Positions 48,635-54,925 of a stretch of DNA of 64,000 nucleotides are shown here, in pieces. Under the pieces are notes generated by a model. It was not told the origin of the DNA. It saw only the letters and a list, made by a program, of their open reading frames with translations, and did no database searches. Numbering within the stretch: the stretch's first letter is position 1; every line of letters begins with the position of its first letter. The stretch comes from Escherichia coli (GTDB lineage Bacteria > Pseudomonadota > Gammaproteobacteria > Enterobacterales > Enterobacteriaceae): assembly GCF_003334385.1 (NCBI RefSeq), contig NZ_QOWN01000011.1; one strand, given 5' to 3'. Position numbers and translations under genes: made by a program.

Positions 48635-49495
48635 ATGAGTCAGGCGCTAAAAAATTTACTGACATTGTTAAATCTGGAAAAAATTGAGGAAGGACTCTTT
48701 CGCGGCCAGAGTGAAGATTTAGGTTTACGCCAGGTGTTTGGCGGCCAGGTCGTGGGTCAGGCCTTGTATGCTGCAAAAGAGACCGTCCCTGAAGAGCGGC
48801 TGGTACATTCGTTTCACAGCTACTTTCTTCGCCCTGGCGATAGTAAGAAGCCGATTATTTATGATGTCGAAACGCTGCGTGACGGTAACAGCTTCAGCGC
48901 CCGCCGGGTTGCTGCTATTCAAAACGGCAAACCGATTTTTTATATGACTGCCTCTTTCCAGGCACCAGAAGCGGGTTTCGAACATCAAAAAACAATGCCG
49001 TCCGCGCCAGCGCCTGATGGCCTACCTTCGGAAACGCAAATCGCCCAATCGCTGGCGCACCTGCTGCCGCCAGTGCTGAAAGATAAATTCATCTGCGATC
49101 GTCCGCTGGAAGTCCGTCCGGTGGAGTTTCATAACCCACTGAAAGGTCACGTCGCAGAACCACATCGTCAGGTGTGGATCCGCGCAAATGGTAGCGTGCC
49201 GGATGACCTGCGCGTTCATCAGTATCTGCTCGGTTACGCTTCTGATCTTAACTTCCTGCCGGTAGCTCTACAGCCGCACGGCATCGGTTTTCTCGAACCG
49301 GGGATTCAGATTGCCACCATTGACCATTCCATGTGGTTCCATCGCCCGTTTAATTTGAATGAATGGCTGCTGTATAGCGTGGAGAGCACCTCGGCGTCCA
49401 GCGCACGTGGCTTTGTGCGCGGTGAGTTTTATACCCAAGACGGCGTACTGGTTGCCTCGACCGTTCAGGAAGGGGTGATGCGTAATCACAATTAA
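48635..49495 (+). CDS. tesB: Acyl-CoA thioesterase II, 286 aa
   Basis: Start at [20 protein letters not shown] inside track ORF 48617..49495; double hot-dog fold protein. Confidence 0.93.
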
Positions 49496-49543
49496 AAAAA
49501 TAGCCGGAGGTGAAAACCGTCCGGCTGTTTTTTGCAGTGCTTG

Positions 49544-50830
49544 TTACGCGTTATAGGCATTCTCGCCGTGGCTGTTGACATCCAGCCCTTCTCGCTCCTG
49601 CTCTTCCGGTACACGCAGACCAACCGTCAGATCCGCCAATTTGTAGCCGATAAATGCCACAACACCGGACCAGACGATCGTAATGGCGATGCTTTCCAGC
49701 TGTACCAGCAACTGATGGCCCATCGTCACACCTTCAGCGAAGCCCACGCCGCCCAGCGAGCTGGCGGCAAAAATCCCGGTCATGATACAGCCGACAATGC
49801 CACAAACGCCGTGCACACCGAAGACATCGCAGGGATCATCCACCCGCAGCAAGCGTTTGAGCATGGTAACGCCCCACAAGCCCGCCAGACCAGCTACCAC
49901 GCCGATAATCAACGCGCCGCCAACCCCAATGTAGCCGCAGGCTGGCGTCACGCCGACCAGACCGGCAATCGCGCCAGAACACGCCCCCAGCAGTGAAGGC
50001 TTACCACGCAGCGCCCATTCACCGAAGATCCAGCCAAGAATTGCCGCCGCCGTTGCGACCACAGTATTCACAAATGCCAGTGCCGCGATTTCATTCGCCG
50101 TGCCCGCTGACCCGGCGTTAAAGCCAAACCAACCGATATAGAGAATGGCAGTCCCGGTGAAGACCATCGGCAGGTTGTGCGGTTTAAACGCCTCTTTACC
50201 GAAGCCCACGCGTTTTCCTATCAGATACGCGCCCACCAGACCGGCGATTGCGGCGTTAATGTGCACCACGGTGCCACCCGCGAAATCCAGCGCACCGTGA
50301 GAAGCCAGCAAACCACCGCCCCACACCATATGCGCAATCGGAATGTAAGAGAGCGTCAGCCATACCACCACGAAAATCAACACAGCTGAGAAGCGGATTC
50401 GTTCCGCCAGCGCCCCAACTATCAAGCCGACGGTAATGCAGGCAAACGATCCCTGAAACGCCACGTGGATATACTGATAAATGCTGCCCATCACCGCCGT
50501 CAGTTCGATGTTTTTCAGCATCAACCAGTTAATGTTGCCGAAGAAGTTGTTGCCCTCACCAAACGCCAGCGAGTAACCGTAAACCACCCAGAGAATACAG
50601 ACCAGTGCAAATGTCACCGTCACCTGCGTCAGCATCGACAGCACGTTTTTGCCGCGAATCAACCCACCGTAAAACAGGGCAATCCCCGGAATAGTCATAA
50701 ACAGCACCAGCGCAGTACAAATCATCATAAACGCATTGTCGGCTTTATCGGCCACCGCAGGTGCAGCCATTACCAGTCCCGGAAGCATCGCCAGTGAAGC
50801 AAGCCCAGTTTTTATCGTCGCTATCTTCAT
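49544..50830 (-). CDS. amtB: Ammonium transporter (Amt/Rh family), 428 aa
   Basis: Signal peptide plus 11-TM Amt channel; 29 bp downstream of glnK. Confidence 0.96.
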   Translation of the reverse strand: MKIATIKTGLASLAMLPGLVMAAPAVADKADNAFMMICTALVLFMTIPGIALFYGGLIRGKNVLSMLTQVTVTFALVCILWVVYGYSLAFGEGNNFFGNINWLMLKNIELTAVMGSIYQYIHVAFQGSFACITVGLIVGALAERIRFSAVLIFVVVWLTLSYIPIAHMVWGGGLLASHGALDFAGGTVVHINAAIAGLVGAYLIGKRVGFGKEAFKPHNLPMVFTGTAILYIGWFGFNAGSAGTANEIAALAFVNTVVATAAAILGWIFGEWALRGKPSLLGACSGAIAGLVGVTPACGYIGVGGALIIGVVAGLAGLWGVTMLKRLLRVDDPCDVFGVHGVCGIVGCIMTGIFAASSLGGVGFAEGVTMGHQLLVQLESIAITIVWSGVVAFIGYKLADLTVGLRVPEEQEREGLDVNSHGENAYNA

Positions 50831-50859
50831 TTTTCGTTCCTGTTGCTGTGTGCCAGAGA

Positions 50860-51198
50860 TTACAGCGCCGCTTCGTCGGCTTCGCCGGTACGAATACGAA
50901 TGACGCGTTGCAATTCAGCGACGAAGATTTTGCCGTCGCCAATTTTTCCGGTGTAAGCCGCCTTACTGACGATATCGATCACTTCATCGAGTTGGTCATC
51001 AGCAATCGCCACATCAATTTTTACTTTTGGCAGGAAATTGACGCTGTATTCCGCCCCCCGGTACAGCTCGGCATGCCCTTTCTGACGCCCGAAACCTTTC
51101 ACTTCGGTGACGGTCAGGCCCTGAATACCAATGGAAGATAACGCTTCACGAACGTCTTCCAGCTTGAATGGTTTGATTATCACGGTCACCAGCTTCAT
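50860..51198 (-). CDS. glnK: PII-family nitrogen regulatory protein GlnK, 112 aa
   Basis: Start at MKLVTVIIKPFKLEDVREAL inside track ORF 50860..51336; T-loop RGAEY with the uridylylation tyrosine. Confidence 0.96.
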   Translation of the reverse strand: MKLVTVIIKPFKLEDVREALSSIGIQGLTVTEVKGFGRQKGHAELYRGAEYSVNFLPKVKIDVAIADDQLDEVIDIVSKAAYTGKIGDGKIFVAELQRVIRIRTGEADEAAL

Positions 51199-51250
51199 AG
51201 ATCCCCTCCGGTCAGAATTCGGTAATGGTTCTGCTACACGAAGAAGGTAT

Positions 51251-51266
51251 TGCAAGCGGTGTGCCA
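51251..51266 (-). promoter_or_regulatory. sigma-54 (-24/-12) promoter of glnK-amtB, with upstream NtrC-type dyad(s)
   Basis: Minus strand reads TGGCAC-ACCGC-TTGCA; further upstream (plus-strand 51322-51336) GCAC-TATGACA-GTGC resembles an NtrC site. Confidence 0.75.
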
Positions 51267-51378
51267 GAAATGAAAAACGAGAAAGAGAGCAGGAAGTTAA
51301 GAAGTTTGAAAATGAAAACGCACTATGACAGTGCACAGTGCGTTACATTTTTGCACCAACGATGAAATATTGCGCTAT

Positions 51379-54925
<3,547 letters not shown>

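Follow-up and report, generated by a model that had tools for sequence, protein, structure and literature searches.

The 180-bp spacer between mdlB and glnK in the DNA analyzed here is, with a probability that we put at about 95%, the region that natively controls the glnK-amtB operon of E. coli, known as glnKp. The finding is already known, and it is correct but ordinary since the promoter that drives glnK-amtB during nitrogen starvation is well known; van Heeswijk et al. 1996 and Atkinson et al. 2002 reportedly described glnKp as the sigma-54/NtrC promoter of this operon. The window, that is the whole stretch of 64,000 nucleotides under analysis, carries on its minus strand the genes mdlA and mdlB, the spacer, glnK and amtB in that order, with mdlB and glnK co-directional. 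On the basis of the list of open reading frames and the RefSeq annotation, which for mdlB was that of the identical K-12 sequence, the mdlB coding sequence was placed at 51379..53160 on the minus strand, where its stop codon bounds the control region. The same sources placed glnK, encoding a PII-family nitrogen regulator of 112 amino acids, at 50860..51198 and amtB, encoding an ammonium transporter of 428 amino acids, at 49544..50830, both on the minus strand. The gap between glnK and amtB is 29 nt and the two genes form one operon. Beyond amtB lies the convergent gene tesB, followed by ybaY, which is co-directional with glnK.

The identity of the locus was established by sequence comparison. 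A 1-kb query was 100% identical to E. coli K-12 MG1655, where the RefSeq gene names at the match are mdlB, glnK and amtB, and it was found in 5424 of the 5426 complete E. coli genomes. The 180-bp spacer alone was recovered from the same 5424 genomes at an identity of at least 95%, with no annotated feature underlying it. The window therefore carries the K-12 glnKp sequence itself and no variant of it, and its 17-mer is identical to the published ChIP-seq site OS03. An initial annotation, made from the sequence by a reader without database access, had proposed nitrogen-limitation control of glnK-amtB for the interval 51199-51378. This interval is exactly the minus-strand spacer between the mdlB stop codon (51379) and the glnK start codon (ATG at 51198), and the proposed mode of control is borne out by the locus identity and by published sigma-54 and NtrC data on the identical sequence.

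The core of the control region is a sigma-54 promoter, TGGCAC-N5-TTGCA (TGGCACACCGCTTGCA), at 51266-51251 on the minus strand, an assignment that draws on the sequence, its uniqueness, published ChIP-seq and gSELEX data, and conservation. In promoter numbering TGGCAC occupies -26 to -21 and, after five nucleotides, TTGCA occupies -15 to -11. The GG doublet (-25/-24) and the GC doublet (-13/-12) are exactly 10 bp apart. The element had been picked out in the initial annotation and proved to be the only exact match in the 64-kb window, with a chance expectation of 0.06 per window and a match in 6 of 100 shuffled sequences. Its distance to glnK, estimated there as about 50 bp, was measured as a gap of 52 nt between the end of TTGCA (51251) and the ATG (51198). 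The perfect sigma-54 consensus at glnKp has been remarked on in published work. In sigma-54 ChIP-seq the element corresponds to site OS03, with the motif CTGGCACACCGCTTGCA centered at U00096.2 471761 and a FAT value of 18, and the start was predicted 19 bp past the motif center, 42 nt before glnK (PMC4591121). An RpoN-holoenzyme gSELEX peak also falls within the mdlB>glnK spacer (PMC8743547). Applying the prediction rule and the 'Distance 42' entry of PMC4591121 to the window, we infer that the start nucleotide is C51240, 12 nt downstream of the C in the GC element, which gives a predicted 5' UTR of 42 nt at 51199..51240 on the minus strand. The Shine-Dalgarno (SD) sequence of glnK, GGAGGGG, lies within it at 51209-51203. 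A consensus scan of 49400-51700 detected no sigma-70-like promoter, and a by-eye search of the spacer for an IHF site (WATCAA-N4-TTR) gave no good match.

The mapping of window coordinates to the published genome coordinates was checked with the sole one-mismatch match to the promoter, at 10475-10490, which maps to 512538 and hence to site IS02. This sequence (TGGCACTGGTTTTGCT, minus strand) is located inside ybaT, and IS02 is an intragenic ChIP-seq site at U00096.2 512538, 679 bp upstream of cueR, with a PSSM score of 12.1 (PMC4591121).

Nitrogen control of glnKp is documented by several lines of published work. NtrC ChIP-seq with nitrogen-starved cells gave a peak at glnK-amtB with 39.7-fold enrichment (peak 1 of a table arranged in genome order), and glnK mRNA was induced on nitrogen run-out, was undetected in a delta-glnG strain and was restored by complementation (PMC4066584). 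NtrC gSELEX likewise gave a peak within the mdlB>glnK spacer (PMC8743547). The NtrC-specific activity at glnKp, expressed as transcript per NtrC molecule, was 400-fold higher under ammonium starvation than under ammonium-rich conditions, and the promoter is regarded as exclusively NtrC~P-dependent (PMC3870243). The Salmonella glnK promoter (TGGCACATCCTTTGCAAT) displayed sigma-54-dependent activity, with 1.1 Miller units in standard medium versus 1778 under nitrogen limitation (PMC3844500). On the identical sequence, published work demonstrates that sigma-54 and NtrC occupy the spacer in vivo and that glnK expression depends on NtrC. Relative to site B, the better of the two candidate NtrC sites described below, the ChIP-seq peak interval (U00096.2 471741-471821) is displaced by about 50-130 bp in the downstream direction. 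Since the resolution of ChIP-seq and gSELEX is about 100 bp, these data by themselves fall short of proving that NtrC contacts precisely sites A and B.

Upstream of the promoter two putative NtrC sites were recognized on the minus strand. Site B (TGCACTGTCATAGTGCG, 51335-51319) is centered at -87 and harbors the one exact GCAC-N7-GTGC found upstream of glnK (51334-51320); its assignment draws on this exact match, on conservation and on the ChIP-seq and gSELEX peaks at the spacer. Site A (TGCAAAAATGTAACGCA, 51355-51339) is centered at -107, 20 bp upstream of site B, and is degenerate. The initial annotation had reported GCAC-N7-GTGC dyads in the plural; one exact dyad was indeed present, but the second site lacks GCAC-N7-GTGC. 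When scored against the consensus TGCACCAnnnTGGTGCA (TGCACCA-N3-TGGTGCA, as quoted in PMC8743547), which allows a maximum of 14, site B reached 10/14 and site A 9/14. Site A furthermore fits the core GCAnnA-N3-TnnTGC (PMC8743547) with one mismatch.

Judged on consensus score only, neither site stands out from background. The exact dyad occurs once in the window compared to 1.9 expected, and sites scoring at least 10/14 numbered 35 compared to 33 expected by chance. No other pair in the window combines the quality of A and B with a 20-bp spacing, and 0.19 such pairs would be expected by chance. Because the motif scans were at chance level, we rejected sequence statistics as proof of NtrC sites: sequence alone establishes the sigma-54 element and not the NtrC sites. 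The dyads become convincing only through cross-species conservation together with the published binding data, from which we infer the precise contacts of NtrC with the two sites. A further sequence, AGCACCAGAATGGTGTC at 51521-51537, scored 11/14, above both intergenic sites. It is situated within the 3' end of mdlB, some 290 bp upstream of the predicted glnK start, where coding constraint confounds conservation tests.

Conservation was examined using a GlnK scan with one genome per species, which gave 79 loci, 15 from Enterobacterales/Orbaceae and 64 from outside these groups. E. coli and the 15 other Enterobacterales/Orbaceae loci were aligned (alignment A1, 16 sequences). The pattern TGGYAY-N5-YTGC was present upstream of glnK in all 15 other loci, starting 59-104 nt before the ATG, and TGGCA and TTGC were invariant in all 16 sequences of A1, with most of the spacer unalignable. 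The core columns of site B were invariant in A1 as well, again with an unalignable flanking spacer. As YGCAC-N7-GTGCG, site B was found in 14 of the 15 other loci, the Orbaceae locus being without a recognizable site. In most relatives site B reads ATGGTGCG, which is nearer to the consensus than the E. coli sequence ATAGTGCG. Of the 14 other species with site B, 11 have a 17-mer resembling site A exactly 20 bp upstream of it, measured from center to center, examples being TGCACTTCTGTGACGCG in Yersinia and TGCACTATAAAGCGGCG in Rahnella; among these 14 species it was unrecognizable in the Klebsiella isolate and in two Photorhabdus. At the level of sequence comparison, this is a clean phylogenetic footprint of a putative two-site enhancer combined with a -24/-12 promoter.

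The distance between enhancer and promoter varies between lineages. Site B is centered at -87 in both E. coli and E. albertii, at -97 in Citrobacter, at -118 in Superficieibacter and at -130 to -142 elsewhere. The shorter enhancer-promoter spacer of E. coli and E. albertii (51267-51318 in the window) suggests a lineage-specific deletion. Eight Enterobacterales carry a third NtrC-like site of the form YGCACC-N5-CAGGCA, such as TGCACCAAAATCAGGCG, at a distance of 42 bp upstream from site A. It is positioned just past the upstream stop codon (about 2250-2266 in locus L004, with equivalents in L003, L005, L006 and L009-L012); E. coli, E. albertii and Citrobacter lack it. The loss of the third site and the shorter Escherichia spacer are minor refinements of a known system. 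The 64 glnK loci outside the Enterobacterales/Orbaceae set (L016-L080) come from Pseudomonas, Marinobacter, betaproteobacteria and others, and only 15 of them have a match to the strict pattern TGGYAY-N5-YTGC in the 400 nt upstream of the gene. For three Stutzerimonas/Pseudomonas loci the -24/-12 match is about 195-203 nt upstream of glnK, a distance that suggests a long leader or a small upstream open reading frame.

The DNA that carries the dyads also encodes the putative intrinsic terminator of mdlB (51308..51344, minus strand), a feature supported by a terminator-like scan match, its fold energy, a published RNA 3' end and conservation of the stem. The hairpin has an 11-bp stem in which 51344-51334 pairs with 51327-51317, a 6-nt loop, and is followed by TTTTCATTTT; the U-tract (UUUUCAUUUU) is interrupted. 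The right half of site A, the whole of site B and the 3 bp between the two sites make up the stem. Folding of the 86 nt after the mdlB stop codon as RNA gave -23 kcal/mol with a z-score of -2.6. In re-analyzed RNAtag-seq/Term-seq data a 'Primary' mdlB RNA 3' terminus is listed at U00096.3 472487, 70 nt past the stop codon, and the source table shows the same hairpin, with significance in three LB libraries (PMC10687069 and its supplements). The terminus corresponds to window position 51309, 8 nt beyond the stem. It is listed in this TRS data set; among the entries listed in three other data sets there was no mdlB or glnK match. An Rfam scan of 50700-51600 with E-values up to 1 gave no match, and neither the hairpin nor the leader can therefore be ascribed to a known RNA family.

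In a comparison of nine Enterobacteriaceae, pairing of the stem held in 92.9% of cells, with a single pair alternating between C-G and U-A. This switch probably represents a single evolutionary event and, with nine related sequences only, gives modest support. Enterobacteriaceae, in which the mdlB stop codon lies 43-73 nt upstream of site B, have an invariant T-run after this site. No T-run follows site B in Yersinia, Rahnella and Acerihabitans, whose upstream stop codon lies at a distance of 120-174 nt, nor in Photorhabdus, in which this distance is only 7 nt. The hairpin, the mapped 3' end, the pairing of the stem and the distribution of the T-run together make it very likely that the dyad has a dual use, acting as an NtrC enhancer in DNA and as the mdlAB terminator in RNA. 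The reading of the dyads in the initial annotation was therefore incomplete: NtrC control stands, but the terminator hairpin encoded by the same DNA was missed. The hairpin shares with Rho-independent terminators an 11-bp stem, a 6-nt loop, a U-tract and an RNA 3' end 8 nt past the stem, and differs from them in that the stem consists of activator half-sites of the enhancer of the next operon and in that the U-tract is interrupted. That NtrC occupancy would alter mdlAB termination or read-through is doubtful.

If the dyad at 51317-51344 were only the mdlAB terminator, its NtrC likeness would result from hairpin symmetry and NtrC would act from elsewhere. The terminator-like hairpin and U-tract, the mdlB RNA 3' end at 51309, the one compensatory base-pair change and an NtrC consensus score no higher than chance are all consistent with this explanation, but it is very improbable because YGCAC-N7-GTGCG has been kept in Yersinia, Rahnella, Acerihabitans and Photorhabdus, where no T-run follows. 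Furthermore, the symmetry axis of the NtrC site is at 51327 while that of the hairpin is at 51330.5. In 11 of 14 species there is also a second 17-mer at exactly 20 bp upstream, with a third one 42 bp further upstream in eight, and NtrC occupies the spacer both in vivo and in vitro (PMC4066584, PMC8743547).

A second element directed against RNA arriving from upstream is the anti-SD 'insulator' CCTTCTT at 51247-51241 on the minus strand (-7 to -1), which is present only in read-through RNA and is supported by a published mutational analysis and by RNA folds. In a mutational library, a 7-nt CT-rich block centered at -4 of glnKp was identified as an anti-SD insulator that silences only RNA arriving from upstream (bioRxiv 10.1101/086108). 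Of the published sigma-54 insulators glnKp is the founding example, and the CT-rich block at -4 is CCTTCTT in the window. The published tests used a reporter ribosome-binding site, whereas in the window pairing is predicted with the native glnK SD. When the native sequence was folded, the SD (51209-51203) of read-through RNA was paired with 51246-51240, and the mean probability that the SD is unpaired is 0.006 in this RNA versus 0.36 in the transcript starting at 51240. An anti-SD action on the native glnK ribosome-binding site is what these folds predict. Strong pairing (SD P(unpaired) of at most 0.03) was obtained in only 4 of 16 species, namely E. coli, E. albertii, one Enterobacter and one Photorhabdus; the native pairing is thus not strongly conserved outside Escherichia and the anti-SD layer is not general.

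The segment between enhancer and promoter (51267..51318, minus strand) is T- and pyrimidine-rich, as seen from its sequence and from a direct repeat. An exact 9-nt repeat, TTTTCATTT, occurs at 51318-51310 and 51276-51268, 42 bp or about four helical turns apart, one copy flanking the terminator U-tract and the other abutting the -24 element. The T-runs after site B and just upstream of the -24 element are conserved in Enterobacteriaceae. The two copies may possibly serve as in-phase T-tracts, and a role of such tracts in intrinsic bending of the DNA over the unusually short loop is conceivable.

It is even less probable than the terminator-only explanation that TGGCAC-N5-TTGCA is a non-productive sigma-54 site and that glnK is expressed from another promoter or by read-through from mdlAB: two thirds of 135 sigma-54 binding sites are intragenic, with promoter activity for only three of the intragenic ones, and glnKp, whose start position is a predicted one, carries a 'predicted' mark in the EcoCyc column (PMC4591121), but the element is intergenic and correctly oriented with its predicted start 42 nt from glnK and has no sigma-70-like promoter near it (49400-51700), a -24/-12 element is present upstream of glnK in 15 of 15 other species, glnK mRNA requires NtrC (PMC4066584), the orthologous Salmonella promoter fragment is sigma-54-dependent (PMC3844500), and the terminator and the anti-SD block both oppose expression by read-through.

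With glnKp as a productive sigma-54 promoter, transcription of glnK-amtB would follow the textbook mechanism, which we regard as very probable. The sigma-54 RNA polymerase would reside in a silent closed complex on TGGCAC-N5-TTGCA (51266-51251) until, under nitrogen limitation, NtrB phosphorylates NtrC. NtrC~P dimers would occupy both sites, whose centers at -87 and -107 are separated by two helical turns, and would build up the active oligomer. This oligomer would loop across the short T-rich spacer to the closed complex and open the promoter using ATP, and transcription from about position 51240 would yield a glnK-amtB mRNA with a 42-nt leader. Expression from upstream would be silenced in two layers. 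The mdlAB RNA copied from sites A and B would form the hairpin and U-tract that end the mdlB transcript at 51309, and in any read-through RNA the CCTTCTT block would pair with the glnK SD, with a predicted block of translation.

The promoter glnAp2 is the textbook NtrC/sigma-54 system, with a -24/-12 promoter, upstream 17-bp dyads, NtrC~P oligomers and DNA looping. It resembles glnKp in its -24/-12 promoter, in having 17-bp NtrC dyads upstream that share one helical face, and in looping by NtrC~P. The two differ in the arrangement of the enhancer: in glnAp2 two strong sites near -108 and -140 are accompanied by weaker 'governor' sites, whereas the pair in glnKp (-87 and -107) is spaced by 20 bp and includes a degenerate site. 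In addition, glnKp has no overlapping sigma-70 promoter. According to Atkinson et al. 2002, glnKp reportedly needs more NtrC~P and fires later in starvation, a point to which PMC3870243 also refers.

The promoter glnKp is a standard reporter of NtrC activity and among the best-documented sigma-54 promoters. Its recovery from raw sequence by a reader without tools makes it a positive control, as a real regulatory element was found. The pairing of the native SD with the pyrimidine block at -7 to -1 is a minor refinement for those who reuse glnKp, and the doubling of the enhancer as the mdlB terminator is another minor refinement, useful to those who reuse the promoter as a genetic part.

For the organism itself, we lean towards the view that the approximately 28 bp at 51317-51344 are under double selection, as glnK-amtB enhancer at the level of DNA and as mdlAB terminator hairpin at the level of RNA. 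If true, double selection could explain why the end of site B has an invariant G instead of A in Enterobacteriaceae and why the right half of site A has C instead of T, this G and C forming a pair of the stem. It could also explain the conserved T-run, and possibly the weakness of the enhancer and its shortened spacing in E. coli.
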